In this document: positions 14,501 to 42,133 of the stretch, one piece after another
How positions within the stretch are numbered: the stretch's first letter is position 1
How the letters are laid out: each line of letters begins with the position of its first letter
NCBI GenBank assembly: GCA_016934075.1
Contig: JAFGTN010000578.1
Span: 1 to 42,454 of the forward strand
DNA from: Pirellulales bacterium
Lineage (GTDB): Bacteria > Planctomycetota > Planctomycetia > Pirellulales > Thermoguttaceae
Length of the DNA stretch: 42,454 nucleotides
Direction: 5' to 3'
The notes under the pieces: model-generated
Told to the model about the DNA's origin: nothing
What the model saw: the letters and a program-made list of their open reading frames with translations, nothing else
Databases searched by the model: none
Made by a program: the position numbers and the translations under genes

Positions 14501-16539
14501 TCAAGTTTTTTGACAGCTTCATCGAACTTGCCCGTGGACAATAACCGGCCGATCGCGGTGAAACCCCTGGATGCCACAATAGACGTCCTGGTCGTGCGTT
14601 TCTTAGCCTCTCTGGCCAGATCCGATCGACCAAGGCGGTCGTAGCAAACAGCGGACATTTCATCACATTTCATCGCCAGCTGAGGACGCCAGCGTGATAG
14701 TTCATCGCGAATTGAATCGCACTCCTTACCGGCTTTGGCCCACTGTCCCTGCACAAAAGCCGTCCTGGCAGAGAGATATCCCCGGAAAACCGGTAATTCA
14801 TAGATCGAGGGCGAGGTTCGCAATTTGTCGGAAATAGTGACGATTTCTTCGCGTATTTTATCCCGCTCACCTTTGTCTGTATTTTTCAATTCACCAAGAT
14901 CATCTATGAGGAAGTTCGCTTTTCTCCAAAGCAATTCCGGCGAGTCATCTATTCGATCCAGCCCTAAATCAATCCATTCCCGAGCCTTCGCCTTGTCGCC
15001 CTCGCTGCTGGCAATCTGACTCAAAAGTGAATATGCGGAAGTGGAATCCATGTAAAAAGCATTTACTCTTTTTGCAAGCAAACACGCGGCATCCATTTCA
15101 TTCTTTGCTGCTTGACATCTTGCCAAAAGAAGCAAAGCATCTTCCAGACTCTCATCGAGTTTGTCCAATTTGGAAACCGTCTCCGTATTGGCATCATTAA
15201 CGGTTTGTAGGGTTTCAGATATTTCTTCGCTGTCGTTTTCCAGGGAAATTTCGACCAAGAATTTTTTCGTTGTCCTAATAGTCTTGGAAGCATTTTTCAA
15301 TGCCGCTGCAATGGCCTTGTCTTCTTCGGGGGATTCTTTGATGCCGGCAACATTGGACGCTGATTTTGCAGCGATTTCCATTTGTTTGGAAGCTGACTCA
15401 AGTTCTTCGACCATCGCTTTCGTGGGATTCGACTGCAAGGGCAATGATTCGGTCAATTCAGACAACGCCTTAGCTGTATCACTAAACGTACCCCCGACAT
15501 TCCGCATCGCAATTGGCATTAACTTCAAAGCCGCTGTGGCGTCGTTAGCCGCTTCATCGGATTTTTGTGTGTTGAGAAGATATTGACCTCTTGCCAAATA
15601 AGCCTGTGGTGAATTCGGGTTAGCATTCACCATGCGATTCATCCAGGTGTCTGGATGGTTCTCGTCCTCTATTTCAATCAGTTTATTTTTAGTACCTTTT
15701 GGCGGTTTCACGCCTTCTTTCTTACCTTCAGGCTCGGTAACATCCGGCTTTGCATCACCTTTCACGGATGTGTCCTGTTTTTTCCCATTGGATTTAGTAT
15801 CAGGCTTGGTGTCAGGCTTGGTGTCAGGCTTGGTGTCAGGCTTAGCTTCCGCAGGTTCCGTCCCATCAGACTTGGCAACTTCATTCGGAACGCCGGCGGG
15901 TACTTTCACGGTGGGATGCAGGTCACGGTCACCGCTAAGTTTCATGTCTTTTCCCAAAATCGCTACAAGCTTTGTATAAGGTTCGATGCTATCGGGTTGT
16001 ATAGTGATCGCCTTTTTGAAGGACTCCTTGGCTAATTCGTATTCCTCTTCATCGGCTTGGCATTGACCGAGCCATGTGAGCAACTGGGCATCATCGGGGG
16101 AGTCTTGAAGCAGTATCTCAAGATGCTCTTTCGCGTCAGCATAACGATGAGTTATGATCGCCACCTCGACAAGATCTCGCCGCACATCGGAAAGAGTGGA
16201 ATCATTCCGGAGAGTTGTCTCGAAAGCACGAAAAGCGCTGGCATAGTAATTTTGGTATTTCGGCCCACCCATTTCTGCAATATCGACCATGAGCGAGCCC
16301 ATTTCGGCTCTCTTCTCATCGTCATCAGGACAAATATTCATATAGCGACGTAGATTCTTAAGTGCATCAAGACGATCCTCGAGCAGATCGCTGTCCTTTG
16401 TCCGTTGGGCCGTTTTGTAATAAAAATTTGCATGTCGGGATATCTGAAAACGATTGAGACCGAATGTTCCAATCGCAATAACCACTCCGAGTCCAACAAT
16501 GATTGCCAGTAAACGAACATTAAGAGAACGCATGAACAC
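11536..16539 (-). CDS. Very large (about 1665 aa) N-terminally membrane-anchored TPR-repeat protein with a K/P/D/T/E-rich low-complexity linker
   Basis: The track start at 16537-16539 is GTG; an in-frame ATG lies at 16531-16533. The N-terminal hydrophobic helix is LLAIIVGLGVVIAIGTFGL. TPR-like A/L/Y/G-patterned helical repeats recur throughout. The low-complexity stretch includes AKPDTKPDTKPDTKPDTK. Confidence 0.85.
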   Translation of the reverse strand: MFMRSLNVRLLAIIVGLGVVIAIGTFGLNRFQISRHANFYYKTAQRTKDSDLLEDRLDALKNLRRYMNICPDDDEKRAEMGSLMVDIAEMGGPKYQNYYASAFRAFETTLRNDSTLSDVRRDLVEVAIITHRYADAKEHLEILLQDSPDDAQLLTWLGQCQADEEEYELAKESFKKAITIQPDSIEPYTKLVAILGKDMKLSGDRDLHPTVKVPAGVPNEVAKSDGTEPAEAKPDTKPDTKPDTKPDTKSNGKKQDTSVKGDAKPDVTEPEGKKEGVKPPKGTKNKLIEIEDENHPDTWMNRMVNANPNSPQAYLARGQYLLNTQKSDEAANDATAALKLMPIAMRNVGGTFSDTAKALSELTESLPLQSNPTKAMVEELESASKQMEIAAKSASNVAGIKESPEEDKAIAAALKNASKTIRTTKKFLVEISLENDSEEISETLQTVNDANTETVSKLDKLDESLEDALLLLARCQAAKNEMDAACLLAKRVNAFYMDSTSAYSLLSQIASSEGDKAKAREWIDLGLDRIDDSPELLWRKANFLIDDLGELKNTDKGERDKIREEIVTISDKLRTSPSIYELPVFRGYLSARTAFVQGQWAKAGKECDSIRDELSRWRPQLAMKCDEMSAVCYDRLGRSDLAREAKKRTTRTSIVASRGFTAIGRLLSTGKFDEAVKKLDEMIEAGQVPKDSWVLIAQHYLNVNRAPNTEKKDWPTFEKILKVAQKANPEDNRLPLIAAGALIAQEKLDEAQKVLAEACKKNPKEISFWQALIGVNQKKEDWKEVETLLLDARKELGDAIELRLAEGMMMTERDKGQASSALKRLAENTDEYSDQDKSRLLSSLAIYARQIGDLELAQQLCRKEADRDPTNMKIRILLFEISAEKKDDDAMAAAVKEIHRIEQDGPLWHFYEAMRLATKVDETGEESLYDEALKHLARAKILRPNWEHIFMLAGKIELRKDNKKAAIENFMEAVEKGSRDNRGIGALITLLYEDGRNDEAQRMIDLLEKQGGQISDYAKIRQAQDEILHGDREKGVESFRKIAENSKDFREHLRLGQILSSLALQAQLAKNESHAKDLRAEAEASLRKAIELAPDETNVWVALVWLLKQSGKESEALEVIKDVRKKIDKKRLPLALARCYESLGRNPEAQQQYQIAVANSDGKDSAARLFATFYLRDKKLEEAEALLKKIVEGKQPASEYDKEWARHRMALMLFSLGGLANRHDAIELLNINLKDNPSSENDIREKARILASFGNLEELEEASKLVQKLLSLPNPKPEDRFLMAGIMLAKDDWSGVTRQMRELLAEETVKPKWLRYYIEVLLDRNEFASAESYLKRLQQIDPDNFGIIKYSARILADREQYDRILAILDKYVNSTPSTAIISASEAEKQKTARLVNATMTLEELIAKLPSSEKGNDPKKLAGAKILIARAEKYWRDIAKLYPDGALRLVSFIGQHGKRDEALDIIETAWKKGNPSSVATSAVAIIIKGDASPDQIKRIERVINDASITFGESNPLILAMAELRCSQRRYEEAEALYRKALAKDPKDVVALNNLGVFLALRNIKPDESLKLINQAIEIAGAKPVLRDSRASAYIARGEWQKAIAELNAAIGGRPTPMRLFHLAQALNGAKQKNKAAAVLKKAQNMGLYEDNLQPLERPAYRKLLEDLK
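15799..15846. repeat. Tandem 12-bp repeat, 4 copies (GTCAGGCTTGGT-like), encoding (KPDT)4 in the TPR gene
   Basis: Read directly: atcaggcttggt gtcaggcttggt gtcaggcttggt gtcaggcttagc. It is in frame and preserves the minus-strand ORF. Confidence 0.9.
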
Positions 16540-19372: not shown

Positions 19373-21115
19373 TTATGGGTGTTTTTCGATACGCCAGGTT
19401 AGTTTGTAAGGTAATTCGACAAAGCTGCGCCAAGCCAATCGCTGCACATCCAGACGCCGGCCATACTCCGGACTATAAGGCCGGACTAGAGTTTCGGCAG
19501 TGACATTATCGGCTTCCAGCTTCGCATAAACCCTCTTGTCATGTCTGACGATTTCCCAACTGTCGTCATACTTTCGGGCCGTCCATCCGGGAGCCAGCAA
19601 TAGTCCACCTTCGAGCGAGTGGCGGCCTCTACCGCTAATCTCGTCGACGATAACAAGGCAGCCTTGGTCGGTAATTTCCACTCTGCGAGTATGGCAGGGC
19701 CGACCATCAAGATGATAATAACCGTCGTGTGATCCCGTGGCTCGCAGGGTATTGTCAGTAGTGTCGCAACTCACACCAATCGGGTGAGCCCGCCGTCCAA
19801 CTCGGAAAATATGCCAGACCTCGCTGGAATCAGTAGAGTCGACACATAATGTATTGTGTGACATCGTAGATCGATCGTAGTATCTCTTTTCGTCATTGTC
19901 GTAAGCGAACGTACCAGGATCTACAAACAACCGCTCACCTTCGAAGGAAGCCTCTATCGTAAGCGTGTCTGCATGTGCATGCCCAGGTTGATAATCCACG
20001 CCTACCGGCCCCACGTCGAAAAACAAACTCCACGGCTGGCCATGCCAGACCACCATACCGAAATTCTCAAAGAGCTTGCCGCCTTTGCGTGGCTTTATGT
20101 CGACCTCCAAACGAAGTACTTTGCAGCCGGCTTTTAACATGTCCCGCGGATGGCAAGCACCGTTCATGCCACCGTCGTTGAATAACGGAACCTGACCATC
20201 GGGATGCCGCATCCAAGCCAGCATATCGGCCATTTTTCGCCAGGTTTCGCGAAGGATTTCCCGCGCGGCCGATTCGTCGACAAGCGAGCCCAGCGTCAAG
20301 AAGTCCTCCATGGCATGGACGTGATACATGGGAGAGCGTTCGAAATGCCCACCGTCCGGCAAAACCTGTTCAGCGGCTTGCGACAGCGCAATCTTAGTGG
20401 CCGATTGCATCCACTCGTCGGCTTGCGATCCGCCAAAAAAACGCCCGGCCCATGCCAACCCCACGGCATCGCGAAGCACGTGGTTGGCGCGGAGGTCCCA
20501 TTCGATATGATCGCCTAGAAACGCCGTTTGCCGCCAGAGACTACGGAGAAATGTGTTTTCCAACTCGCCCCAATTCTTGCGTCCCTCGACGCCCAGCAGA
20601 TGGTAGAGGCGGCACCACCAACCTATTCGAGTTGAGATGGCATAGGCATTCCAAGCCAGATCGCGCGAGCCCTCGGCCACCAGATCGCAATTGGTGATCC
20701 AATCGTCCAGCAACCGTCGCAAGCATGCATCCGCACGATTAGCATCGTCTCCGCCGACAACCACACGACTCGCCAACTCCCAAGCCCAGGCATGATAGTG
20801 CAAGGTAATCGTCCACAGTCTATCGTCGCTTGCCGTTCCAAGCAGCCAGTCGGTTGGCGAGTGGCCCAGCGTTTTGGTCTTATTGAGATGTCCAAAACGC
20901 CCCTCTTCCAACATGGCTACAAATTCGTTACTGTCATTATCATGCTTCACCAGCGGAACTTCGGGAAAATCCCCGCGAAGTTCGATCTCCTCGGGCACCC
21001 ACGGCTCGACCACCGGCCTGGATCTTTCTCGCCGATAGCGCAGCCGCCAGTAAACTTGCGATGGCCGCAAGTGACGTACGGTACGAAAAGTGCGGGCTAA
21101 GGCCGATAGCTTCAT
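19373..21115 (-). CDS. Heparinase II/III-like / alginate-lyase-fold family protein
   Basis: 580-aa ORF with ATG at 21113-21115. The C-terminal half carries GHAHADTLTIE...FVDPGTFAY, characteristic of the heparinase II/III-like domain. The N-terminal half has an alpha-helical toroid-like composition (W/H/L-rich). Confidence 0.75.
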   Translation of the reverse strand: MKLSALARTFRTVRHLRPSQVYWRLRYRRERSRPVVEPWVPEEIELRGDFPEVPLVKHDNDSNEFVAMLEEGRFGHLNKTKTLGHSPTDWLLGTASDDRLWTITLHYHAWAWELASRVVVGGDDANRADACLRRLLDDWITNCDLVAEGSRDLAWNAYAISTRIGWWCRLYHLLGVEGRKNWGELENTFLRSLWRQTAFLGDHIEWDLRANHVLRDAVGLAWAGRFFGGSQADEWMQSATKIALSQAAEQVLPDGGHFERSPMYHVHAMEDFLTLGSLVDESAAREILRETWRKMADMLAWMRHPDGQVPLFNDGGMNGACHPRDMLKAGCKVLRLEVDIKPRKGGKLFENFGMVVWHGQPWSLFFDVGPVGVDYQPGHAHADTLTIEASFEGERLFVDPGTFAYDNDEKRYYDRSTMSHNTLCVDSTDSSEVWHIFRVGRRAHPIGVSCDTTDNTLRATGSHDGYYHLDGRPCHTRRVEITDQGCLVIVDEISGRGRHSLEGGLLLAPGWTARKYDDSWEIVRHDKRVYAKLEADNVTAETLVRPYSPEYGRRLDVQRLAWRSFVELPYKLTWRIEKHP

Positions 21116-21173
21116 AGACTACAATAAGGATTTCGTGTTGCACGCTGGGACTTCCCTGCAACTTTTTGCATGT

Positions 21174-23360
21174 TTACTCCGGTTCGCTGATAACCGATTC
21201 ACGCATCTGGGCGATGGAAATGGGTACTCCTCGCTGGATGCTTTCCAATACGGCAAAACTTACCAAGGTCGTGTCGAACAGAGATTCCGTGCTGATCGGC
21301 GATGACACCCCACGTTGGATAGCGTCGACGAACGCAGCCAGTTCCTGACTATGCCCCTTGTCTGCTTGCATCAACTTGCGAGGCTTGATCCTTTGTGTGT
21401 CGGAATGTATTTCCAGGGTACGGAAATCCGTCAGTACGCCGGCCATACCGCCCGCGAAGACCTCGACGCGTTCCTTGCTGTATGAAGACGGGCCGGTGGA
21501 CGAGTAGACCAACTGGCAAACAGAACCATCTTCGTAGCTTACCGTAATCGCTGCGTCGTCGATCGTCTCGAGCGAGGGAGCCGCCGCAAAAACCGTTACG
21601 GGAGGGGCGCCGGTGAGAAATGTGAAAAAGTCGAGGAAGTGGCATGCTTCGCCGATGATCCGACCACCTTCACTGGGGTCGCTGATCCAGTGGCCCGCCG
21701 GCAAGGAGCCCGCGTTGCATCGATACTGAACATTCAACGCCCCACGTCCGGTAAAATGTTTTTTCAACTCGACGGCCAAGGGCGCAAAACGTCTATTGAA
21801 ACCAATCAACAAGTTGTGTGGATGCGACTGCAGGGTTTTGTGGATCTTGCGTAGGCCGTCGATGTTAATCGACAACGGCTTTTCCACCAGAACAGCCTTT
21901 CCGGCTTCCAAAGCGCGGCAAACGCCGTCGGCATGCTGTGAATGTGGAGTGACGATGACCACGGCATCAGTTTCCGGATCATCCAAGACCTCCGACTCGA
22001 TGGAAGCACAGAAGGCGGCACCGAACTTAGCGCCGGCCGATTTGCTTGCCATTCCGGATGCGTCGACGATTCCCCGTATCGAGACTTTGTTTAACTTCGC
22101 GGCATTGGGCATGTGCACTCCGCGTGCGAAACCACCGGCACCGATGAAGGACAGCCCCACGTTATCTTTGGGTTTCTTGGTCGATGCTTCCGGGAACTCG
22201 ATTCTCGTCGACTCTGCGTCTTTTCCGCCCGCAACGTCTTGTGGATATTCCAGGACGACACCCAGATACGGCTCCTGGTTGCCGAGGATCAATTCGAACG
22301 CCTCCACTGCATCGTCAATGGCAAAACGGTGCGTAGTGCAAACCTCCGGCCGTACCGCTCCGGAAGCCACCATGTCGAGAAACGCCTCGATGTTACGATT
22401 TTCAGTCCAACGAACGTGGCCGACGGGATAATCGTGGCCGTGTTCTTCATAGTCGTTGTCGTAACGTCCCGGACCGTAAGAGCGCGAGACGATGAATGTG
22501 AGTTCCTTTTTGAAGTACGGGGTTCGCGGGATATCCATGCCCGTCACGCCCACCATGATTACTTTAGCGCGGTCTCGAGCCAGGCGTGCCGCCTGTTCGA
22601 CCGGTTCGTTGCTGGAGGTTGCGGCCGTAATCAGGATCGCATCGGCGCCACGCCCGCGGGTGAAGTCCAGAACTTGTTTCTCGGTGCGCTCGCCCTCCAG
22701 TTTCAGCGCCAGTTCAGCGCCGTTTTCGTCTGCCAATTTAACGCGATCCTCGGAAACGTCCAGTGCGGCCACACGGCAACCCGAGGCTTTAAGTATCTGT
22801 ACGGTTAGTTGTCCGATCAAACCCAAACCCGAAACGACGACGGCTTCGCCCACTCGCAAATCAGCCAACCGCACACCCTGTAAAGCAATGGTGCCAACAG
22901 TAGAGTATGCTGCGGCTTCTGTACTCACACCCGCCGGGACGGGCACGGCCAACAGCCGTGGTATATAATTGATTTCGGCATGATTGGCATATCCGGCTCC
23001 GGCACAAGCCACCAGCCCCCCCACTTCAAAACGTCTCGCCCGAGCGCCGACGGCAATTACTTCTCCGCAATTGCTATAGCCCATCGGCATTTCACTGTCG
23101 AGCTTATCGCGGACGGTTTGAAAGGTGGCCCAAAAGCCTTCCCGTTTCATCTTCTCCAAAACTTTTTTGACCAGGTCGGGTCGCTCCTTAGCCTTTCCCA
23201 AAAGGCTTTTTTTGCCCAAAGAAAGCATCATGCGTTCGGTACCGGCGGAGATTAGAGATTTGTGGGTGCGAACCACGATCCCTTCATCTCGCAACATGGG
23301 TGGCGGCACATCTTCGACACTGATTATGCCGGTTTTGAGGTTTTGGAGCATTTGTTTCAT
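21174..23360 (-). CDS. Two-domain oxidoreductase: N-terminal medium-chain (Zn-ADH-like) dehydrogenase domain fused to a C-terminal Gfo/Idh/MocA domain
   Basis: 728 aa, ATG at 23358-23360. The N-terminal half (nt ~22250-23360) has MDR-like features (GYSNCGEV, Rossmann VVVSGLGLIGQL). The C-terminal half (nt ~21177-22180) begins with VGLSFIGAGGFARG and has the EKP motif (VLVEKPL) typical of Gfo/Idh/MocA. Confidence 0.8.
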   Translation of the reverse strand: MKQMLQNLKTGIISVEDVPPPMLRDEGIVVRTHKSLISAGTERMMLSLGKKSLLGKAKERPDLVKKVLEKMKREGFWATFQTVRDKLDSEMPMGYSNCGEVIAVGARARRFEVGGLVACAGAGYANHAEINYIPRLLAVPVPAGVSTEAAAYSTVGTIALQGVRLADLRVGEAVVVSGLGLIGQLTVQILKASGCRVAALDVSEDRVKLADENGAELALKLEGERTEKQVLDFTRGRGADAILITAATSSNEPVEQAARLARDRAKVIMVGVTGMDIPRTPYFKKELTFIVSRSYGPGRYDNDYEEHGHDYPVGHVRWTENRNIEAFLDMVASGAVRPEVCTTHRFAIDDAVEAFELILGNQEPYLGVVLEYPQDVAGGKDAESTRIEFPEASTKKPKDNVGLSFIGAGGFARGVHMPNAAKLNKVSIRGIVDASGMASKSAGAKFGAAFCASIESEVLDDPETDAVVIVTPHSQHADGVCRALEAGKAVLVEKPLSINIDGLRKIHKTLQSHPHNLLIGFNRRFAPLAVELKKHFTGRGALNVQYRCNAGSLPAGHWISDPSEGGRIIGEACHFLDFFTFLTGAPPVTVFAAAPSLETIDDAAITVSYEDGSVCQLVYSSTGPSSYSKERVEVFAGGMAGVLTDFRTLEIHSDTQRIKPRKLMQADKGHSQELAAFVDAIQRGVSSPISTESLFDTTLVSFAVLESIQRGVPISIAQMRESVISEPE

Positions 23361-23426: not shown

Positions 23427-24206
23427 TCAAATCTTCAAGTATTCTTGCACAAGAGCATCCTTTTCATCCCGGCTAGGATAGTTTATCAATACGGCCCGAT
23501 AAACACCCTTAAAAACAAACATACTCCCCGCGGCAGCACCGATAATTCCAAAATTATTGATTAGTTCACCAATGTCCTGAAGCGAACCGGCGCCGCCTAG
23601 AACCGTCAATGGCAAGCTGACGGCTTCTCGGATCTTACTAACAAGCTCATGGTCGTATCCTTCCATAACGCCATCCCGGTCTATAGAATTAACGACGATT
23701 TCTCCCGCACCAAGTTCCTCCACTTGCTTCGCGAATTTTACCGGTGACAAACCAGTTTTCTTTTTGGCGTTATGTGTCCATATTTCATGCTTTCCTCTGA
23801 AGCGGCTTTTTTTTACATCCATGACCACGACCACGCTCTGGCCGCCCACTACTTCTGCCGCCCTGGCCACAATGTCGGGATCACTCACAACCGCCGAACT
23901 CATGGCAACTTTTTCGACACCGAGGCTGATTATTTTGTCAACTTGCTCGACGCTCTTCACACCACCTCCATAGCAAAGCGGCATTCGGCATTCGGCTGCC
24001 AGGTTGCGAATGAGGTTGAAATCCGGCTCGCGATTTTCGGAGGTTGCATCGATATCGAGCACGGTCAACTCATCGACTTCTTTTTCGTTGAATATTTTAA
24101 CGGCGTTTATGGGATCGCCCACGTATTTTGGATTGGTGAAATTCTGGGTTTTTACCAATCCGTTGTTATGAACCAACAGGCAAGGGATAATTCGCGGTCG
24201 CAACAT
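23427..24206 (-). CDS. hisF: HisF-paralogue cyclase subunit of the acetamidino-sugar modification system (WbuZ/HisF2-like)
   Basis: Start placed at ATG 24204-24206 (MLRPRIIPCLL...), 2 nt after the hisH-like TAA, rather than the track start at 24254. TIM-barrel HisF motifs are present: RIIPCL, DELTVLDIDA, GGGV, NSIDRDG, GGAG. Confidence 0.85.
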   Translation of the reverse strand: MLRPRIIPCLLVHNNGLVKTQNFTNPKYVGDPINAVKIFNEKEVDELTVLDIDATSENREPDFNLIRNLAAECRMPLCYGGGVKSVEQVDKIISLGVEKVAMSSAVVSDPDIVARAAEVVGGQSVVVVMDVKKSRFRGKHEIWTHNAKKKTGLSPVKFAKQVEELGAGEIVVNSIDRDGVMEGYDHELVSKIREAVSLPLTVLGGAGSLQDIGELINNFGIIGAAAGSMFVFKGVYRAVLINYPSRDEKDALVQEYLKI

Positions 24207-24208
24207 GT

Positions 24209-24829
24209 TTACATCTCCATTTCCGCGAAATTTCTTAAAAGCTGCATGCCCCATTGGTGACTTTTTTCAGGATGAAACTGCACGCCGAAAACATTATCGC
24301 GGTGCACACTCGAAGCGTAAGAGCCATTGTAGTCGGTTGTTGCCAGAACATGCTCCTGACTTTGTGGGACAAAATAATAAGAGTGCAGAAAATAAAACCT
24401 GGCTCCCGATTCGAGATTTTTGAAAAGACTATTGGTGCCCATTGGTTGCACGTTATTCCAACCCATGTGCGGCAAATGGGTTCGCTGCGTAAATCTTTCG
24501 TGGTCAAACTTCTTGACCTCGGCGGGAATCCACCCCAGGGTGTCTAGGACGCCCTCATCACTTCTGTCAGCCATAATTTGCATGCCTACGCATATTCCCA
24601 GCACAGGCTTGCCTTCGCCGATAACCATTTCTTCAAGTGTTTCCCGGAGTCCAGATCCATTTAAACGAGTCATCGCCCAATCTGAAGCTCCCACTCCAGG
24701 CAAAATAATCTTTTCGGCTCGACGCAGTTCTTGAGGTGTAGAAGCAATGTTAACCGGCATATTGAGTCGCTTATAGATATTGGCAAAGGCATGAATATTC
24801 CCCAATCCATAATTGACGATACAAATCAT
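24209..24829 (-). CDS. hisH: HisH-paralogue glutamine amidotransferase subunit (WbuY/HisH2-like)
   Basis: ATG at 24827-24829, preceded by GGAGG and overlapping the upstream stop as ATGA. Class I GATase motifs: LPGVGA, GICVGMQ (nucleophile Cys), FHPEKS. Confidence 0.9.
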   Translation of the reverse strand: MICIVNYGLGNIHAFANIYKRLNMPVNIASTPQELRRAEKIILPGVGASDWAMTRLNGSGLRETLEEMVIGEGKPVLGICVGMQIMADRSDEGVLDTLGWIPAEVKKFDHERFTQRTHLPHMGWNNVQPMGTNSLFKNLESGARFYFLHSYYFVPQSQEHVLATTDYNGSYASSVHRDNVFGVQFHPEKSHQWGMQLLRNFAEMEM

Positions 24830-25953
24830 CTCTTACCTCCTCTTTCAAGGCCTAAGAATCTCATCGCCTTAGAACCCAGCCAATAAATACTCTCTTGCGA
24901 CTTGTAGTCCTTATATGTTTTGTTTGGAGCATCCATATATCCCTGCAATTCTTCGACAGAGATCCCAAGCTTGGTAGCCACATATTCGAATTCGTGATGT
25001 ATCGTTTCCTCATCATAAGCCGGACGTGAGAGTTTTTCTAAAGCCTCTTCGCGAGTCATCTGATTTGTCAGAATAAGACTTGAGAATTGTACTTTTCTCG
25101 TGTCGTAATTAAATTTCTTGGGAAGCCAATATGATTCGTAAAATCTTGTGAAGCGGGATTCAAAATGTTTTTGAGGATATCTTTGCCATCCAAAGCGGTC
25201 AACCAGCAATTGCATGGCTTCTTCTTTGTGATAAGGAACATAGTCCAACGGTTTTACAACGGTGATTCCCTTCACATACCTCAGGTACACCTTATGCCAA
25301 AGAATGCTGGTTATGGGAAAATTTATCAATGGTCGCTGACCAAACTTTTTGTGTATATCTTTAAGCTGAATAGAATCTGATTGAAAATACATCCATTCTT
25401 TTGGATTTCTTACGCATTCTGTGGAATAGTTCGCACCCGTGAGAATGTATTTAATCTTGTATTTGTTCGCAAAATTGTACATCGTGGCAAAAAATGCATG
25501 ATCCTGAGGTACATCAATGTGCGGGACGCCTGACTTGAAATAAGCCAGTTGGAGGTCCTTCATTTCTTCCCAGTCAATTACGTCGGTATACAAATCCAAA
25601 CCAAGGCCATCGATCAGTTTCTCGATGTTATTCACTGCGATTTGAGAATTCCAGCCGGCATCAACATGAAAAACCAACGGCCGCAAACCAAATTCTTCTT
25701 TTGCCACATACATCAAATAGGAGCTGTCAATGCCTCCACTCACTCCCATGATGCAGTCGAAGTCTTTGCCCTCACCTTCTTTTTTGATTTTCTGCACAAT
25801 TTTCTCAAGCTTCTGTCGCCCTCTTTCATCAGTATGCCAATTCGGCAAGATGTCTTTGTAGAAGCTATTGCAGTGATCGCAAACGCCGTTTTTATCAAAC
25901 ACTATCATGGAATCCGTGGTATCCATGACGCAGTTTGTGCAAATTTGAAACAT
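24826..25953 (-). CDS. N-acetyl sugar amidotransferase (WbuX/WbpG family, PP-loop ATP pyrophosphatase with N-terminal Zn-ribbon)
   Basis: The track start at 25981-25983 is GTG. ATG at 25951-25953 sits 6 nt after GGAGG and was chosen. Motifs: CTNCVMDTT...CDHCNSF (CxxC...CxxC) and GVSGGIDSSY (SGGxDS PP-loop). Confidence 0.85.
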   Translation of the reverse strand: MFQICTNCVMDTTDSMIVFDKNGVCDHCNSFYKDILPNWHTDERGRQKLEKIVQKIKKEGEGKDFDCIMGVSGGIDSSYLMYVAKEEFGLRPLVFHVDAGWNSQIAVNNIEKLIDGLGLDLYTDVIDWEEMKDLQLAYFKSGVPHIDVPQDHAFFATMYNFANKYKIKYILTGANYSTECVRNPKEWMYFQSDSIQLKDIHKKFGQRPLINFPITSILWHKVYLRYVKGITVVKPLDYVPYHKEEAMQLLVDRFGWQRYPQKHFESRFTRFYESYWLPKKFNYDTRKVQFSSLILTNQMTREEALEKLSRPAYDEETIHHEFEYVATKLGISVEELQGYMDAPNKTYKDYKSQESIYWLGSKAMRFLGLERGGKR

Positions 25954-26011
25954 GCAATTCCTCCGTACTGTGATTATGCTCACAGTGTCAACAAGGAACC
26001 TTTGTATTGGT

Positions 26012-28222
26012 TCAGCCTAACATTGATTTTTTGCAATCCATTTTCGCCACGACAATAAACATTTGATCTGCATACGCAGAAAGTCCTATCTTGCGGAGCA
26101 TCTTTGATAAGAATGGCGTTTGCTCGTAGAATTGTTTTTCTAATATGTCCAAGCCACATGCTTTGAGCTTAGATTCTATCTCCTCCAATGTGCAGACGTG
26201 CTTAACATGCTTATAATATCCAGGACGCCCAATGATTTTATAAGCAATTGGCTCAGCCATCCTGTAAAGACTTTGTTTGTTCGGCATGGAAATCATTAAC
26301 ACACCGTTGTTTTTCATTAGGGAAAAAAGTGATTTCAGTGACGCATCTAGATCGTCCAAGTACTCCAACACGCTGGAACAAATAATCAGGTCTACCTTTT
26401 CATCCAGGAGTTCTCTCAGATATTTGATGTCGCATTCCAAGAAATCGACATTATTCAGTCCTGCCTGTTTCTTTTTTTCTTGACAGATATTTAACATTTC
26501 TGTGCTGGCATCAATTCCAGTAACGCTTGTGGTTCTTTCCGCCAAGTAGAAGCTAAAAATACCACTACCACAGCCGACATCCAAAACACTCATGTCGGGG
26601 GAGCAATATTTGTCGATCATCCTTGTCCAAACAGCATACCGCTCGATAAAGTTTTTGCTTTTCGAATATCTAAGATCGAAATTTCCTGCAATCTGCGTGT
26701 GCCATTCAACAGCATTTTGCGCTGGTACCATAGAATCTTGTATCAAAGTGGTCGGCTGTGAAGTTATCACGCTTTGGTCATACGTAATTGCGTACGTCTC
26801 CCAATAGGTCGGAACGGAAAGATTCTGTTCTATCATGATGTGCTTGCCGCTTCTGCTTTTTTTCAATCGTTCGACTTCCTCGATTTCCACAGCAACATCG
26901 TTTCCAAGTTTTGTTTTCAAGGTTTTTAGGATAATCGCCTTTTGTTCCTCGCCATAATCAGCCCGCGGCACGACTCTAAATACTACGTGGCCTGGCCGGT
27001 CCTGATAGTACTGTGTTTCGTAGACGTATTTGGAGATGTTGAAATGCGCGGCACCCATCACGCATATCGAAATCAAACGATGGTCGGCCGTTACAATAAA
27101 TTCCTGCAACCGGCCTTCCACGTCGCTTATTATGGGATGGTGCCGTCCGCATTTGCAATCGGGCTCGCCAATGGTGCCGTAATCCTGCGTACGGTATCGT
27201 ATCAACGGCATAACTCGGTTGTGAAAACTGGTTCCCACCAATTCTCCCATGGCTCCCGGCCTGTCGAGGATGTCGCCATTGGTATTCATCACTTCCAAGT
27301 ACCCATACTGAGGGTAGAAATGCAGGTTGTGACTCTCTTCGCATTCCATTCCCAAAAGAACCATTTCCGAATGTCCGTAGAAGCTGAATATTCTGCACCC
27401 GAAGACTTTTGCCATCAATTCCCGTTGCCATGGGAAAACATTTTCGGAAGAAAGGCAGACCGCCTTGAGCTTGGGAAAATCTCTTCGTGGATTGTTCTTC
27501 AAGAATTGCGCGAGTTGGTTGATCGAAGACACATATCCTATGAGAAATTCCGGCTTGAAGTCTCTAATCTTGTCCAGATATAGAGGAATGTACGATTCGG
27601 TCAAGTAGTTGCTGTTCATTTCCAGGTATCCCTGGATGGGTTCGTATTCCCAGAATATATTCTGCTCGGGCTTTCCCACGCTACGCCCTTCTAACTGAAC
27701 GGTACGTGCGCGTGGATAATAGCCGACCCGTGCACAACCATCCCAGATAAAAGCGCGCTCCTTGCTGCGAGTGACTCCTTTTTCCTGCAGAAAACTGAGC
27801 GGTTCAATCGTGCTGCCTCCGGTCGTGGTTATCAGATGCCGCCAAGCCGGCACATTGTCGGCTATCAAATCGTTGTAATTCTCTTGAATGTCCTTCTTGG
27901 ATAGCATGGGGAATTTTTTTATGTCGCCAAGGCAGGTAAAGTCGGCCGGAGAAAGCCCGTACTCGGAGAAGGTTTTTTTGTAATACGGAACATGCTCGTA
28001 AGCTTGCGTCAGTGTGTTCAGCATTTCCACATATTGATAATCCTCACACTGTTGCTTTGACCAATACTGCGAAGTTTTCAGGAGTTTCTTGAACCTCACA
28101 TAGCTACCGCCAAGTCGCAATCTCTGCGGGATCATGTGGTACAGACTTCCCACGATAGCTTTCTGCCAAGCCGGAAGGGCAAAATAGAGTGCCCTGGGTT
28201 TTCTGAGGATATCTTCAAGCAT
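26012..28222 (-). CDS. Fusion protein: PaaK/coenzyme-F390-synthetase-like adenylate-forming enzyme (N-terminal) + class I SAM-dependent methyltransferase (C-terminal)
   Basis: 736 aa; the ATG at 28220-28222 overlaps the upstream CapA-like stop by 8 nt. Ligase motifs: TTTGGSTIEP, FYGHSEMV, GELVGTSFHNRVMPLIRYRTQDYG, SRSGKHIMI. The MTase domain (nt ~26015-26755) has motif I VLDVGCGSGIF and the DLIICSSVLEYL motif. Confidence 0.75.
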   Translation of the reverse strand: MLEDILRKPRALYFALPAWQKAIVGSLYHMIPQRLRLGGSYVRFKKLLKTSQYWSKQQCEDYQYVEMLNTLTQAYEHVPYYKKTFSEYGLSPADFTCLGDIKKFPMLSKKDIQENYNDLIADNVPAWRHLITTTGGSTIEPLSFLQEKGVTRSKERAFIWDGCARVGYYPRARTVQLEGRSVGKPEQNIFWEYEPIQGYLEMNSNYLTESYIPLYLDKIRDFKPEFLIGYVSSINQLAQFLKNNPRRDFPKLKAVCLSSENVFPWQRELMAKVFGCRIFSFYGHSEMVLLGMECEESHNLHFYPQYGYLEVMNTNGDILDRPGAMGELVGTSFHNRVMPLIRYRTQDYGTIGEPDCKCGRHHPIISDVEGRLQEFIVTADHRLISICVMGAAHFNISKYVYETQYYQDRPGHVVFRVVPRADYGEEQKAIILKTLKTKLGNDVAVEIEEVERLKKSRSGKHIMIEQNLSVPTYWETYAITYDQSVITSQPTTLIQDSMVPAQNAVEWHTQIAGNFDLRYSKSKNFIERYAVWTRMIDKYCSPDMSVLDVGCGSGIFSFYLAERTTSVTGIDASTEMLNICQEKKKQAGLNNVDFLECDIKYLRELLDEKVDLIICSSVLEYLDDLDASLKSLFSLMKNNGVLMISMPNKQSLYRMAEPIAYKIIGRPGYYKHVKHVCTLEEIESKLKACGLDILEKQFYEQTPFLSKMLRKIGLSAYADQMFIVVAKMDCKKSMLG

Positions 28223-29246
28223 GATTAATATAGTACCGGATTTGCATAGGTAAAAACAGCCATATCAGAAACTTAAGCATCAGCGTGGGACTTTTTGTTT
28301 TCACGCATTGCTTTTTCCAGACCTTATACTCGTGGGAATACCATTTTGCATAGTGGTCGGAAAACCATGTCGTCGTTTCGATGGACTGAACGATGTGACA
28401 TAAATTTTCAAGTCGGTTTAGAAGTTCATCTTTGTCATGCCCCGTAGCCGCAAAGGGCTGATAATTGTCGTTGATACGATAAGGCACGGGTTCCGCACGT
28501 CCGTTTTGCGGGTCGTAGCGGACCATGTATCCCCATTTGTTATTTTCCGATGGTTTCTTGTCGAACTGCCAAAAGTTGAAATTCCCCAATGAGTAAAAAA
28601 TCGTCGCATCGCGGTAAACTTCCCATCCTTGCGGAACATGAGGATGGTGGCCGATGATCAGGTTGGCGCCGGCATCGACGAGCCGCCGGGCTAAGTCACG
28701 CTGAAACGGTGCCGGGGCATCCGTGTGTTCATAACCCCAATGCAGGTTGACCACGCGGCGCTGAGCATTCGAGTCACGGACCATTTTTTCCAGCCTCCTG
28801 GCAAGCGGCCCATTGAATGACAATCGGATGATGGGTAAGGAAAAGTATGCGCTGAAAAATTCAAATGAAAGGCTCTTGATCTCGGTGGACATTCGTGCTG
28901 GATTATCCGGGCCAATCACGATCTTCCCTCGCTGCCGCAATGCAAGCGCCAAGTCTGCCGGATCGCTCCGGTCAGACATATGGTTATTCACAATACTGAC
29001 AAGCGACACGTTTTGGGGAATACAATCCAAAGTATTTTCGTCAACACTCAAAGTAACATTTTTGTCTGTATATCTCCCCCCTTCCAAAGATGTCTCGCAA
29101 TTAATGCAGGTCATGTACCCATCAATCCCCTTGTTGATGATCGCGAACGGGTCGTCGCCATTACGTGTTCGCAAAAAAGCGTCGCCACAAAAAAGGAGCG
29201 ATAACTCTTTTGCTTTTGTCGGGGAGCAATCTGGTTCACAAACCAT
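28215..29246 (-). CDS. CapA/PgsA-like (PGA_cap, metallophosphoesterase-fold) protein
   Basis: Start placed at ATG 29244-29246 (MVCEPD...), 10 nt after GGGAG and 1 nt after the upstream GT2 stop. The track start at 29315 lies inside the GT2 gene. Motifs: LLFCGD, NLHWGYEHT, GANLIIGHHPHVPQG, FYSLGNF. Confidence 0.7.
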   Translation of the reverse strand: MVCEPDCSPTKAKELSLLFCGDAFLRTRNGDDPFAIINKGIDGYMTCINCETSLEGGRYTDKNVTLSVDENTLDCIPQNVSLVSIVNNHMSDRSDPADLALALRQRGKIVIGPDNPARMSTEIKSLSFEFFSAYFSLPIIRLSFNGPLARRLEKMVRDSNAQRRVVNLHWGYEHTDAPAPFQRDLARRLVDAGANLIIGHHPHVPQGWEVYRDATIFYSLGNFNFWQFDKKPSENNKWGYMVRYDPQNGRAEPVPYRINDNYQPFAATGHDKDELLNRLENLCHIVQSIETTTWFSDHYAKWYSHEYKVWKKQCVKTKSPTLMLKFLIWLFLPMQIRYYINHA

Positions 29247-30182: not shown

Positions 30183-31091
30183 TCAGTCGGATAAACGGTT
30201 ATCAGAGAATACTAACTTCTGTAAGTCGGACGCCAGTATTCTTGGGTCATAATCTCCGTGGGGCGCCTTTGGCTCTTCCGGTATACGCCCGGTGGTTTTT
30301 ATTTCCTTGACTTTTAGTTCTATCATTCGCAGTTTTACTATTTCCCCTCTTGCACAAGTCAGCCCCCTAAAACCGTCGCGCCATGCGCCGCGCACAAATA
30401 TCTCGTATATCCATTGCAGTTGATAACGGAACGGCACACTAAAAAAGATCTTCTTCAGATACATGCGACGCTCTAAAGGCGATCCGAAAAACTTCGGGGT
30501 GGTAGCCATGGCATCTCCTCGAACACGCATTATCGCTTCCATCGTTGTATAGCGATTCTGCTTTTCACACCAATGATGTAAATCCGGGCTGTCGTGGTGT
30601 TCGATATGGCATTGAAGACGTCCGGTGATTCCATCCACGATGAGATGTTCGTTGACAATAACATCAGAAAAGCGGGATTTGTTTTTTCGCCATAGTCGTA
30701 CAACATAAACCTTCGTGTGTATGGGCTTGCCCATAAACCAATTACGGACCGGGATAACAAACGCGGCTTCCTCCGGATCGGTTGACAGAACCTCGCATAT
30801 TTCTTCTTTCAACTCGTTGTTGACTCTCTCGTCAGCATCTAATTTCATCATCCACTCTGTTTTGATCGGCAGGTTATCAATTGCCCAGTTCCATTGATCG
30901 CTATAATTCGTGAAAGGACGCTGCACGATCCCAACCCCGTGCTCAAGAGCGATATCAACTGTACGGTCCGTACTGCAACTATCAACAACAAATACTTCTT
31001 CCGCCCATCCTTTTACGCTTTCAATAGCCCCGGGGAGGTTGAATTCCTCGTTGAGCGTGAGAATAATCACCGTGATTGGTAGTTTGGCCAT
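30183..31091 (-). CDS. Glycosyltransferase family 2 (paralogue B, 302 aa)
   Basis: ATG at 31089-31091. ITVIILTLNEEFNLPGAIESV...VDSCSTDRT and LDADE are present. It aligns without gaps to the neighbouring GT2. Confidence 0.85.
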   Translation of the reverse strand: MAKLPITVIILTLNEEFNLPGAIESVKGWAEEVFVVDSCSTDRTVDIALEHGVGIVQRPFTNYSDQWNWAIDNLPIKTEWMMKLDADERVNNELKEEICEVLSTDPEEAAFVIPVRNWFMGKPIHTKVYVVRLWRKNKSRFSDVIVNEHLIVDGITGRLQCHIEHHDSPDLHHWCEKQNRYTTMEAIMRVRGDAMATTPKFFGSPLERRMYLKKIFFSVPFRYQLQWIYEIFVRGAWRDGFRGLTCARGEIVKLRMIELKVKEIKTTGRIPEEPKAPHGDYDPRILASDLQKLVFSDNRLSD

Positions 31092-38921: not shown

Positions 38922-40172
38922 TTATCCTAACAAGAGCAAACCCGCTCTATAAAAATAGCCGTACTTCTGGACCGGAAATTTTATCTCGACGCCGCATTTT
39001 TTCGCTGTTTCAACAACGTCGATACCAACCGCCTCAAGAGGACGGCGAGAAAGATGCGGGAATCTGCATTTCTCCTCATCACAACCATTCGGACACAATT
39101 TGCACGACCCGCCTATAAATGATGTGGCATAGTAATATCCAAGCATACCTGCCTTTTTCTCAAGATCGAGCAATACCCTGTGGAGCGTATTAGTTGAAGA
39201 TTGCCGCACCGAATTATATTCATCTTCTGTATTAAATGTAGATTTGAGAAAAACCATTAGTCCCCTGTTATACGGGCTCAAAAGTGCATGGACATCAAAA
39301 TCATCCGGAAATGGTGGGCATGTCCATGTCTTACCATACTTTGGGCATTCGCTACATTTCAGGAGTACCCTTGAATCAAAGACAAGATCCTGCATAGAGA
39401 TAACTTTTGTCTCAAAGTTAGGTAATGAAAGAACAAAATCGCTTAGTTCATGTATGTTACTAAAAAGCCTGTTGGCTTTTTCAAATTCCTCCAGTTTGTC
39501 TATTTCAATCCAGTTGTACCCTTTTATATTCATTCTGTGAATCTTGTGGTCGTTAATTATCATCTGTATTGCATCTTCGTAATACAAATCGGTTTTGCCG
39601 TCGTTTATTAACGAATCAACTGTGCCAAAATATTGCGATACAAACGCTCCGCTGAATTTATTGACGCCTATGGATTCACCATATTGCGCCTCCGAATTAA
39701 CTGCTAACTCTTTTCCTATTGCAACTATTTCGTCGTTTACTACCTTGGCCTTCATTTCGTCAGCGCCAAGCTCACTCTCGTGATCTACTACCATTACGCT
39801 CTCAAATTCAGAATGCGCAACGTCCATGTATAACCCTGCTTCACACAGTACATCCCCGTCTATGGATATAAAGCCGTCTTGCAAGTAGTCTTTTGCAAGC
39901 CACAACGAATATATGACGTTTGTTGAGTCATATTTATCGTTTATTAAGTATTTTATTTTCAGACCTTTGTAATTGTCCTTCACTGCGTCGGCTATCATTT
40001 GATGTTTATAGCCAATGAGTATAATTACTTCTTCAAGGTTTAGTGGCAGAAGTTTGTCAAGCATGTGGAATATGAGGGGCTTGTTTTCGATCTCAAAAAG
40101 GACCACGGGTTTTTCATCTATAAGAGGTTTAAGACGATCGTCTTTTCCCGCTGCAAGTATGAGTGCTTTCAT
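38922..40172 (-). CDS. Fusion protein: LicC-like nucleotidyltransferase (N-terminal) + Cys-rich putative metal-binding domain (DUF2284-like, C-terminal)
   Basis: ATG at 40170-40172. The N-terminus is MKALILAAGKDDRLKP...NDKYDSTNVIYSLWLAKDYL...IDGDV (LicC/cytidylyltransferase pattern). The C-terminal domain (nt ~38925-39360) has CSECPKYGKTWTCPP (first Cys codon 39354..39356) and GGSCKLCPNGCDEEKC...RRPLEAVGIDV (nt ~39061-39120). Confidence 0.65.
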   Translation of the reverse strand: MKALILAAGKDDRLKPLIDEKPVVLFEIENKPLIFHMLDKLLPLNLEEVIILIGYKHQMIADAVKDNYKGLKIKYLINDKYDSTNVIYSLWLAKDYLQDGFISIDGDVLCEAGLYMDVAHSEFESVMVVDHESELGADEMKAKVVNDEIVAIGKELAVNSEAQYGESIGVNKFSGAFVSQYFGTVDSLINDGKTDLYYEDAIQMIINDHKIHRMNIKGYNWIEIDKLEEFEKANRLFSNIHELSDFVLSLPNFETKVISMQDLVFDSRVLLKCSECPKYGKTWTCPPFPDDFDVHALLSPYNRGLMVFLKSTFNTEDEYNSVRQSSTNTLHRVLLDLEKKAGMLGYYYATSFIGGSCKLCPNGCDEEKCRFPHLSRRPLEAVGIDVVETAKKCGVEIKFPVQKYGYFYRAGLLLLG

Positions 40173-40203
40173 TGGTAATGCTCTTGTATTCTTAAACCAA
40201 ATG

Positions 40204-41280
40204 CTATTTGACTCTGGACATTACATCTTTTAAAGCATCTATAAACCGAGTCATGTCATCTTCCGCAAGGTTCCCTAGAATTCCAACTCTTAAAAACCTG
40301 TCTCTTAGTGGACCTGGAGCGTTGTGGGAAAGTATTATCCCATGCCTCATTTCTAATAGGTCTACAACCTTGTCGGAGTGAATTCCGGGTGGCAACAAAT
40401 ACAGTATTACGGAATTGGCAGGATTTTCACCAAACGGCTCAAGTCCTAATTTATCAAGGCCATTTCTCAGCTTCTGTGTAAGCCCTGCATACCTTTGAAT
40501 CATGTTTTCTATTCCCTCATGACGTATCTTTTCGAGTCTTGCGTTTAGTTGGAAAAGAAGGCTTATCGCCGGTGTGAAAGGAAATTGGCTCATAGGCACA
40601 AAACGCTGATACTCCTTAAGTTGAAAATAGAATTTTGGAAGGCGTGCTGTTTGCATTCTGTCAAACGCTTTGCTACTAAACGAAAGAAAAGAAAGGCCTG
40701 GAGGAAGGGCAAGCCCTTTCTGCGTGCTTGCAACGGCAATGTCAATTCCCCATGCATCGGTCAATAATGGTTCGACGCAAATACTGCTTATGGCATCAAC
40801 TATTAAAAGGATATTTGTTCCTCTTAAGATATTACCGATTGAGGCTATATCAGTTAAAGTCCCTGTCGATGTTTCATTGACTGTAAGGAACACCGCTTTC
40901 GTATCGTTGCTTAACAATTGGCCGATTTGTTCAGTCTTCAATGCCTGACCTGGTTTCAACATGATTTCATTTACATTAATTCCGTATGATCTGCATATTT
41001 TCCCCCATCTTTCTCCGAACACTCCACCGTTGACAGAAATCACATTGTCTTCCGCATTCAGTGTGTTAACAACAGCGGCTTCCATCGCGCCTGTTCCGGA
41101 GCTCGTCAGGGTAAACACATGATTCTGCGTTTGGAAAACGTATTGTAAGCCATCGGTTATTTCTTCCATCATCCTCGAAAACTTCGGAGACCGGAAATAT
41201 ATCATCTTCTTCGAGGCTAATTGCAGTATGTCCTGCTCGATTTCGGTAGGTCCTACCATCATTAATGTTTGATCTGACAT
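40204..41280 (-). CDS. Class V (AGXT/SerC/PhnW-type) PLP-dependent aminotransferase
   Basis: ATG at 41278-41280. Motifs: MVGPTE, SSGTGAMEAA, VDAISS, STQKGLALPPGLSFLSFSSKA with the putative PLP Lys codon at 40717..40719. The pattern is closest to serine-pyruvate/alanine-glyoxylate-type enzymes. Confidence 0.75.
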   Translation of the reverse strand: MSDQTLMMVGPTEIEQDILQLASKKMIYFRSPKFSRMMEEITDGLQYVFQTQNHVFTLTSSGTGAMEAAVVNTLNAEDNVISVNGGVFGERWGKICRSYGINVNEIMLKPGQALKTEQIGQLLSNDTKAVFLTVNETSTGTLTDIASIGNILRGTNILLIVDAISSICVEPLLTDAWGIDIAVASTQKGLALPPGLSFLSFSSKAFDRMQTARLPKFYFQLKEYQRFVPMSQFPFTPAISLLFQLNARLEKIRHEGIENMIQRYAGLTQKLRNGLDKLGLEPFGENPANSVILYLLPPGIHSDKVVDLLEMRHGIILSHNAPGPLRDRFLRVGILGNLAEDDMTRFIDALKDVMSRVK

Positions 41281-41340
41281 CTATTTCCCTAATATTAAAA
41301 AGTGGTCGTCAAGTGTTCAAATTCAATTTGTCAGCAGATT

Positions 41341-42042: not shown

Positions 42043-42133
42043 AACCATATTCCTTTGTGAGTTTCACGACAACTTCCGAGAGACACCTAGCAACAAACGT
42101 TATCATCTCCTTCCATAAGTTTCCCTGCCATTG

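Follow-up and report, generated by a model that had tools for sequence, protein, structure and literature searches.

Our analysis concerns a pair of adjacent minus-strand genes in a 42,454-nucleotide stretch of DNA from a Pirellulales bacterium (GenBank assembly GCA_016934075.1, contig JAFGTN010000578.1; hereafter the window), one encoding a CapA-like protein of the PGA_cap family and the other an adenylate-forming ligase of the CapK/PaaK family, whose open reading frame (ORF) continues into a class I S-adenosylmethionine (SAM) methyltransferase. We show that the CapA-like protein belongs to a sharply bounded subclade whose genes, in the 13 loci considered, are with a single exception directly followed by a CapK gene, and the two proteins are very probably functionally linked. 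The CapA-like partner is the uncharacterised and interesting part of this arrangement, the ligase belongs to a kind of enzyme that is just starting to be characterised, and the methyltransferase fusion is a local accident. As a tentative explanation of the whole, we propose that the fusion-bearing segment is the tailoring part of a Wzy-type surface-polysaccharide operon, in which the ligase would form a uronamide, the CapA-like protein would be its epimerase partner, and the methyltransferase would act independently.

The adjacency of a PGA_cap gene and a ligase gene, which the first-pass annotation had pointed out in the window, proved to be a conserved two-gene module. Of 13 subclade loci, 12 have a CapK gene as the next gene downstream of the CapA-like one, and a metagenome scan for CapA-like proteins of at least 46% identity found it immediately downstream and on the same strand in all 11 loci. 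In the exception, from Chlorobium phaeovibrioides (L172; CP041698.1, 1287242-1306261), the CapA-like gene (48% identity) is flanked by insertion sequence (rve) transposase genes, and no CapK occurs within 9 kb of it; this locus, the only member of the subclade from a cultured organism that we looked up, is probably decayed. More distant loci are also paired, one of them (L101) in the usual manner and two others (L104 and L105) with the gene order reversed. The partners themselves are diverse: in 8 of the 11 metagenome loci the CapK protein is just 25-34% identical to the ligase of the window, and the partners occupy at least four separate places in a rough neighbor-joining tree. Because of this diversity, and because only 3 of 80 CapK loci in species-representative genomes have a CapA-like gene adjacent, we view the CapA-like protein as an accessory recruited by several CapK lineages and not as a general CapK requirement. 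A limited literature search found no paper on the pairing.

The window also shows how closely the two genes can be packed. As first described, the CapA-like ORF ends, stop codon included, at 28215 and overlaps the ligase ORF, whose ATG is at 28222, by 8 nucleotides, and its own ATG at 29246 lies one nucleotide after the end (29248) of a family 2 glycosyltransferase (GT2) ORF. This start corresponds to M24 of the longest ORF, and homologues and the database gene call (P0178) begin there as well. The overlap is specific to the window, since the two genes are 34 nucleotides apart in the closest relatives, and the tight coupling of CapA-like protein and ligase is limited to this lineage. At its C-terminus the CapA-like protein of the window is 17-19 residues shorter than its homologues.

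The CapA-like protein matches PGA_cap (PF09587) at 1.9e-30, with 106.6 bits against a gathering threshold of 27, and residues 60-279 are ~30% identical to CapA of plasmid pXO2 (E 7e-21). Its subclade comprises ~70 clusters of proteins of 330-365 residues at 44% identity or more, and the rest of PGA_cap lies at 31% or less. A plasmid collection yielded authentic Bacillus-type CapA and distant relatives, and none of the subclade. Like CapA/PgsA of Bacillus anthracis pXO2, the protein is encoded beside an ATP-dependent amide-forming ligase, but CapA/PgsA has a membrane anchor and is accompanied by PgsB and PgsC, whereas here the partner ligase is of the ANL type (CapK) and not of the Mur-ligase type (PgsB). 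No signal peptide or membrane anchor was found in the window's protein: the maximum 19-residue hydropathy is 1.3, with no transmembrane-like segment, and the N-terminus leads directly into strand beta-1 (some homologues begin MLFCGD). For this reason we consider the protein to be cytoplasmic, like the ATP-dependent ligase. The earlier view that the locus is not a poly-gamma-glutamate (PGA) system also held. A Pfam scan of all long same-strand ORFs gave no Mur-ligase- or PgsB-like match, leaving aside ORFs below 150 amino acids, the size of PgsC, and the locus is a glycan operon, neither a PGA nor a phenylacetate system.

Structural comparison points to a specific relative. In Foldseek searches with an AlphaFold2 model of the CapA-like protein (pLDDT 93), the top four matches were structures of MslH (8itg and 8gq9 among them; E ~1e-15, TM-score 0.63), and YmdB-type phosphodiesterases came next. 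No other relative has been solved, and MslH is the top PDB match by both sequence and structure. It shares the PGA_cap family and a calcineurin-like fold with the window's protein (PDB 8GQ9; PMC10406935, PMC8179263), and it epimerises a C-terminal Trp in a Ca(II)-dependent manner by means of the dyads H88/D91 and H295/D11, with E44, N87, H259 and H261 as ligands (PMC10406935). Among 76 sequences of the CapA-like subclade, N49, E51, N88, H89, D92, H169, H200, H201 and H203 show no variation, and D22 is conserved to at least 90%. MslH residues E44, N87, H88, D91, H259 and H295 align with the invariant E51, N88, H89, D92, H169 and H203, and D11 was matched to D22 by motif position, such that seven of the eight key MslH residues, including both His/Asp dyads, are kept. 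Of the metal-binding residues, E51, N88 and H169 are thus conserved throughout; the equivalent of MslH H261 is not. The likeness is a distant one, with ~16% identity over the structural alignment and a protein ~100 residues shorter than MslH, and the settings differ: MslH belongs to a lasso-peptide cluster, whereas the CapA-like gene has no lasso-peptide genes around it and lies in a glycan operon.

The ligase is related to PaaK and coenzyme F390 synthetase, with which it shares the ANL subfamily and motif set, but from which it differs in a ~50-residue N-terminal extension, its glycan operon and the lack of paa catabolic genes. Solved PaaK structures align to residues 53-378 (1e-21 for 4r1l; the best PDB matches are 4r1l and 2y4o), and the precomputed Pfam match in the database is to the recently defined family CapK_C (PF27533). 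The four motifs cited in the first-pass annotation (TTTGGST, RYRTQD and SGK for the ligase, VLDVGCGSG for the methyltransferase) all occur in the translation. The phosphate-binding loop T133-T-G-G-S-T138 is present, and its T134-T138 are invariant in 19 homologues, as are R342-Y-x-x-x-D347, the hinge G370-R371, and G459-K460 with the C-terminal catalytic Lys. Judged by its sequence, the ligase has the full set of catalytic motifs known from ANL adenylating enzymes. Its scores fall far short of the equivalog cutoffs for PaaK (TIGR02155, 86.9 against 646.3; NF041878, 90.5 against 700) and for F390 synthetase (TIGR03335, 54.1 against 458.7), and the Pfam scan of long window ORFs revealed no paa genes. 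Instead, its gene shares an operon with Wzy_C, GT2, family 4 glycosyltransferase (GT4), WecB and WbuXYZ genes.

The most informative precedent is VpsH of Vibrio cholerae, a CapK-like, phenylacetate-CoA-ligase-related protein that is required to add glycine to L-GulNAcA on a bactoprenyl-PP disaccharide; this follows from the observation that deletion of vpsH in a vpsI background traps the glycine-free disaccharide (PMC13463779). The assignment of VpsH, from 2026, is the first genetic one that we found of a CapK-like enzyme to the decoration of uronic acids with amino acids. Like the ligase of the window, VpsH is CapK-like and encoded in a Wzx/Wzy polysaccharide operon that also has a WecB-type 2-epimerase gene (PMC13463779). 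The two are likened by description and context; VpsH lacks a fused methyltransferase, the Vps proteins discussed include none that is CapA-like, and glycine is achiral. The earlier suggestion that the locus installs a small substituent on a sugar carboxylate thus fits VpsH, the sole genetically studied CapK-like enzyme that we found (PMC13463779). By analogy with VpsH, the window's ligase would use ATP to adenylate a carboxylate, most likely C6 of a uronic acid in a lipid-linked repeat unit, and would then join an amino acid or small amine to it as an amide. We consider it likely that the CapK protein is a glycan amide ligase. A side observation bears on this family: in an uncultured bacterium (MFD04716.bin.3.15; L056:9608-11749) a CapK ligase carries a C-terminal aspartate 1-decarboxylase (PF02261, 1e-23). 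Aspartate 1-decarboxylase is a beta-alanine-forming enzyme, and the fusion suggests a ligase that makes and attaches beta-alanine, and that CapK enzymes couple an amine to a carboxylate.

AglU of Methanococcus maripaludis is presumably a CapK-family protein as well. The archaellin N-glycan of this organism, product of the AglU/AglV/AglXYZ system, contains ManNAc3NAmA6Thr, a mannuronic acid that bears both an acetamidino group and a threonine amide (PMC11407970). The system has a separate methyltransferase; AglXYZ are equivalent to WbuXYZ, and the acetamidino trio is also present in the window.

What might a CapA-like protein add to such a ligase? An amino acid linked to a uronate through an amide is N-acylated and keeps its alpha-carboxylate free, like the C-terminal Trp of the MslH substrate and the gamma-glutamyl units of PGA. 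D-allo-threonine amides of GalA or GlcA are known from O antigens in Escherichia coli O110, O46 and O134 and in Hafnia alvei (PMC7685785, PMC10609480), and those who characterised MslH have proposed an epimerase function for the CapA of PGA synthesis too (PMC8179263). We favour L-to-D epimerisation because of this chemical likeness of substrates and because D-allo-threonine uronamides exist: as a dedicated cytoplasmic partner of the ligase, the CapA-like protein would act as an epimerase at the alpha-carbon of the amino acid just attached. That it is an amino-acid epimerase is possible, in our estimate, while falling somewhat short of an even chance. The fuller version is more speculative, namely that the subclade would be a new class of glycan-tailoring enzyme, consisting of MslH-type metal-dependent epimerases that convert an L- to a D-amino acid after CapK amidation on a lipid-linked repeat unit, and would be the missing enzyme for D-allo-threonine and further D-amino-acid uronamides of O antigens and capsules. 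Our literature searches returned no direct evidence on PgsA as an epimerase and nothing on the genes of allothreonine clusters.

When uronic acids are decorated with amino acids, O antigens, capsules and biofilm matrices change in charge and antigenicity, and a conserved, uncharacterised MslH/CapA-like partner for a subset of CapK ligases points to a second tailoring step. If this step is epimerisation, it would explain how D-amino acids reach polysaccharides, provide a tractable soluble model for CapA/PgsA function, and reveal a general logic of amide ligase plus PGA_cap epimerase common to glycans, PGA and lasso peptides.

Several observations weigh against this proposal. The position of MslH H261 is occupied by Tyr or Gly in the CapA-like subclade, which has an extra His (H201) and a more canonical GHHPH motif, and the NCBIfam model for MslH (NF038314) gives the CapA-like protein 45.6 bits against a cutoff of 700. 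The residues that are conserved are common to YmdB-type phosphodiesterases (PMC10406935), and they therefore do not separate an epimerase from a phosphoesterase. The function suggested for the subclade comes from comparison and not from the biochemistry of any member. Among the 80 CapK loci of species-representative genomes, 77 lack a CapA-like neighbour. Finally, the uronic acid is itself a presumed substrate, as no UDP-sugar 6-dehydrogenase is visible in the window.

The chief alternative is that the CapA-like protein is a genuine metallophosphoesterase, with CapK attaching an amine or acid that carries a phosphate (ethanolamine phosphate, serinol phosphate, an O-phospho-amino acid or phosphoglycerate, for instance), which its partner then strips off. 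A precedent for this order of events is the Campylobacter jejuni HS:2 capsule, in which an amide ligase puts phosphorylated amines on glucuronate before a separate phosphatase acts. The fold and all canonical calcineurin-like metal ligands are kept, GHHPH is closer to classical phosphoesterases than is the GHGPH of MslH, YmdB-type phosphodiesterases are the next-best structural matches, and the class V aminotransferase and two nucleotidyltransferases of the operon could make a phospho-amine. However, the characterised relatives within PGA_cap do not act on phosphate esters (MslH, and as proposed for CapA), and conservation of the CapA-CapK pair in other loci does not extend to the genes for the aminotransferase and the nucleotidyltransferases. 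For the 'phosphoesterase-fold step' of the first-pass annotation the fold and ligands are present, but the step is not supported as an activity, and the nearest characterised relative, MslH, is an epimerase. We regard dephosphorylation as unlikely, though a serious contender; if true, it would reveal which amine donors are used.

It is also conceivable that the substrate activated by the ligase is not a sugar carboxylate but a small free acid (amino acid, glycerate or hydroxy acid), with which it N-acylates an amino sugar. Small free acids are the normal substrates of PaaK-type enzymes, and amino sugars commonly bear N-linked amino acids (PMC10609480). Methanoculleus genomes have up to three tandem CapK paralogues, and the glycans of Methanoculleus marisnigri bear an N-glyceroyl diamino-uronic acid in addition to C6-amidated ones (PMC11407970). 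Yet the sole genetically studied CapK-like enzyme yields a uronamide, and an MslH-like partner needs a free alpha-carboxylate, which would be consumed if the amino acid acylated through its own carboxylate. On balance N-acylation seems rather improbable, and we retain the uronamide ligase as the preferred reading.

The 736-residue ORF (26012..28222, minus strand) unites an intact CapK/PaaK-family ligase with a class I SAM methyltransferase, as the first-pass annotation had stated; the NCBI gene call begins at M202 (535 amino acids) and the Logan call covers the full length. With good confidence we conclude that this fusion is real but lineage-specific, and that the methyltransferase is not an obligate partner. 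The nine nearest ligase homologues (72-81% identity) are stand-alone proteins of 477 residues ending in ...SVPTYMDxx*, and ligase homologues end at the position of residues ~477-480 of the fusion. Ten aligned methyltransferase homologues begin at the column of M498, so that the module retains the start codon of its stand-alone relatives. The 20 residues in between have no homologue and are probably former intergenic DNA. Insertion of a single base (tatAtgg) changes the reading to YMGDVRNYV-stop, giving a stand-alone ligase with a stop nine codons on and a 46-nucleotide spacer before the methyltransferase ATG at 26731. In our reading, the fusion arose by loss of the ligase stop codon, for which one base is enough, and this welded in the former spacer as a 20-residue linker. 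The event is of minor importance, a recent lineage-specific joining of two neighbouring tailoring genes.

Homologue searches agree that the architecture is a singleton. None of the 120 best ligase homologues has a methyltransferase domain, and none of 57 word-indexed methyltransferase homologues (up to 62% identity; 184-342 residues, nearly all 184-270) has a CapK domain. We also ran a HMMER search with residues 380-736, exhaustive over 1.84 billion representatives, and considered the best 150 matches. Most are short stand-alone proteins; all 10 long matches that we scanned are glycosyltransferase fusions (eight to GT4, one to GT2 and one methyltransferase-GT4-oxidoreductase), and the remaining matches among these 150 are too short to contain a ~477-residue ligase, so that no second CapK-methyltransferase fusion was recognised. 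Two apparent extensions of CapK proteins elsewhere also came to nothing: a CapA-CapK fusion in L035 was rejected, as the two matches lie in different frames of a long high-GC stop-to-stop ORF, and the N-terminal extensions of long ORFs in L070 and L071 contain no recognisable additional domain.

The methyltransferase module matches Methyltransf_31 at residues 542-650 (1.4e-25), with VLDVGCGSG as SAM motif I, and scores 90.1 bits with PF13847 (cutoff 27) and 75.3 bits with PF08241. Stand-alone members of its family directly follow GT4 genes in polysaccharide loci from which both CapK and CapA-like genes are absent. We read it as an independent glycan-tailoring enzyme of a glycosyltransferase-associated family, which would occupy a variable slot downstream of CapK. 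In the nearest relatives this slot holds an unrelated methyltransferase and an Asn-synthase-like gene (L001), a Gfo/Idh/MocA gene (L003) or a second CapK (L092).

An obligate three-activity unit, as the first-pass annotation had it, would have the methyltransferase modify the installed substituent, the attached amino acid being, for instance, methyl-esterified or N-methylated. In favour of it, the DNA of the fusion is real, its sequence being the same in two assemblies. No Shine-Dalgarno sequence precedes the internal ATG at 26731, whereas many other operon genes have one, and the methyltransferase may be made only in fused form; this fits a functional fusion, so that a functional coupling of methylation to ligation is possible, which tells against the independence of the methyltransferase. 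The best NCBIfam matches of the methyltransferase include the carboxyl methyltransferases BioC, CmoM and trans-aconitate methyltransferase, all far below cutoff, and weak matches to a DVU_1553-type ligase and a DVU_1556-type methyltransferase hint at another ligase-methyltransferase neighbourhood. Against such a unit stand the singleton status of the fusion, the closest CapA-CapK relatives, which carry an unrelated methyltransferase 295 nucleotides downstream or none, and the occurrence of the methyltransferase family with glycosyltransferases where CapK and CapA are lacking. The CapA-like and ligase components of the claim therefore survive as a conserved module, while methylation drops out as a conserved third activity, and an obligate unit appears improbable.

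Could the fusion itself be a sequencing artefact, a one-base deletion in the read consensus of an organism that really has two genes? All relatives have two separate genes, a stop reappears on insertion of one base, no homologue of the linker is known, and another apparent CapK fusion (CapK-GT2, P0008) sits on a contig of 4x coverage. However, the identical 736-residue ORF is present on a Logan contig of run SRR13394437, which is an independent assembly, though probably from the same reads, and is 100% identical to the window over 14,277 nucleotides. Because two assemblies contain the same ORF, we do not consider it an assembler artefact, even if their reads are probably shared, and the agreement of different pipelines over 14.3 kb together with a site that is no long homopolymer makes a sequencing error improbable too.

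The minus strand of the window is one long polysaccharide operon (Table 1). A scan for promoters and terminators between its genes gave nothing exceeding shuffled expectation, a result consistent with one transcription unit. Upstream of the CapA-like gene lie the two tandem GT2 genes, a P-loop kinase-like gene, GT1, GT4 and GT2 genes, a Wzy_C protein gene, two nucleotidyltransferase genes and a class V aminotransferase gene. Downstream of the fusion, the WbuX, HisH and AglZ/HisF2-type genes make up an acetamidino-forming trio, and GT4 and WecB-type UDP-GlcNAc 2-epimerase genes follow beyond the oxidoreductase and heparinase-like genes.

Table 1. Features of the CapA-like/CapK segment and its operon neighbours, in window coordinates.
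Feature	Coordinates	Strand	Remarks
CapK/PaaK-family adenylate-forming ligase domain	26792..28222	minus	aa 1-477 of 736-aa ORF
20-residue linker, WETYAITYDQSVITSQPTTLIQDS	26732..26791	minus	aa 478-497; without homologue
Class I SAM methyltransferase module	26012..26731	minus	aa 498-736
CapA/PGA_cap-family protein, MslH-like metallo-enzyme fold, 343 aa	28215..29246	minus	PF09587
GT2 glycosyltransferase, 302 aa	29248..30156	minus	PF00535
Second GT2, tandem paralogue	30183..31091	minus	72% identical to first
WbuX-type N-acetyl sugar amidotransferase (acetamidino formation)	24826..25983	minus	TIGR03573 333 bits, cutoff 203; database gene call begins at 25953
HisH-type glutamine amidotransferase subunit (WbuY-like)	24209..24829	minus	TIGR01855 222 bits, cutoff 105
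AglZ/HisF2-family acetamidino-modification protein (WbuZ-like)	23427..24254	minus	NF038364 384.7 bits, cutoff 310
Fused ADH_zinc_N + Gfo/Idh/MocA oxidoreductase	21174..23360	minus	recurrent downstream neighbour of CapK genes
Heparinase II/III-like protein	19373..21115	minus	member of same recurrent cassette

Parts of this gene order recur around other CapA-CapK pairs. A Desulfomonilia metagenome-assembled genome (L173) has the order CapA-like, CapK, WbuX, HisH, HisF, oxidoreductase, heparinase-like; the same type of GT2 lies upstream of the CapA-like gene in L092, L094, L095, L100 and L171, and in the last of these (P0008) it is fused to the CapK C-terminus. A WbuX-type gene also follows CapK in L098, L101 and L173. 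The ADH_zinc_N+Gfo/Idh/MocA fusion is adjacent to CapK in ~18 of the 80 genome loci (L010-L089) and in most CapA-CapK loci.

A cassette of CapK, this oxidoreductase fusion of ~725 residues and a heparinase II/III-like protein is found in many phyla, including the window (19373-23360), L001, L003, L100 and L173. The cassette may serve to produce the uronic acid amidated by CapK and to epimerise it. This possibility bears on a further alternative for the CapA-like protein, that it is a C5 epimerase of the uronic acid itself, acting before CapK amidation by MslH-like metal-assisted deprotonation alpha to the free C6 carboxylate. The chemistry, at an alpha-proton beside a metal-bound carboxylate, would be that of MslH, the CapA-like gene precedes CapK in 12 loci, and Vibrio polysaccharide carries its amide on a rare L-configured uronic acid, L-GulNAcA (PMC13463779); but the heparinase II/III-like protein already in the cassette could perform this step and accompanies CapK in many loci that lack a CapA-like gene, and in V. 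cholerae C5 epimerisation is proposed for VpsJ, with no CapA-like protein among those discussed (PMC13463779), which makes this alternative very unlikely.

Two further observations concern the wider family and the end of the operon. Loci L010 (Methanoculleus palmolei CP137641.1), L025 and L034 show three CapK paralogues in tandem in Methanoculleus and, in related Methanomicrobiales contigs, a distant CapA-like gene (27-29% identity) after CapK. At 38922-42048 of the window, two sugar/phospho-head-group nucleotidyltransferases, one of them fused to a DUF2284 metal-binding domain, flank the class V aminotransferase, which resembles 2-aminoethylphosphonate and aspartate-glyoxylate transaminases with scores below the cutoffs; these genes may constitute a pathway for an aminated or phosphono substituent, truncated by the end of the window. 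Outside the operon, the window encodes a T5SS/PEP-CTERM-associated repeat protein (9-2330), a 2003-residue clostripain-family (C11) protein with PPC and Big_5 domains (3921-9932), a Ser/Thr kinase (9964-11511) and a 1667-residue TPR protein (11536-16539).

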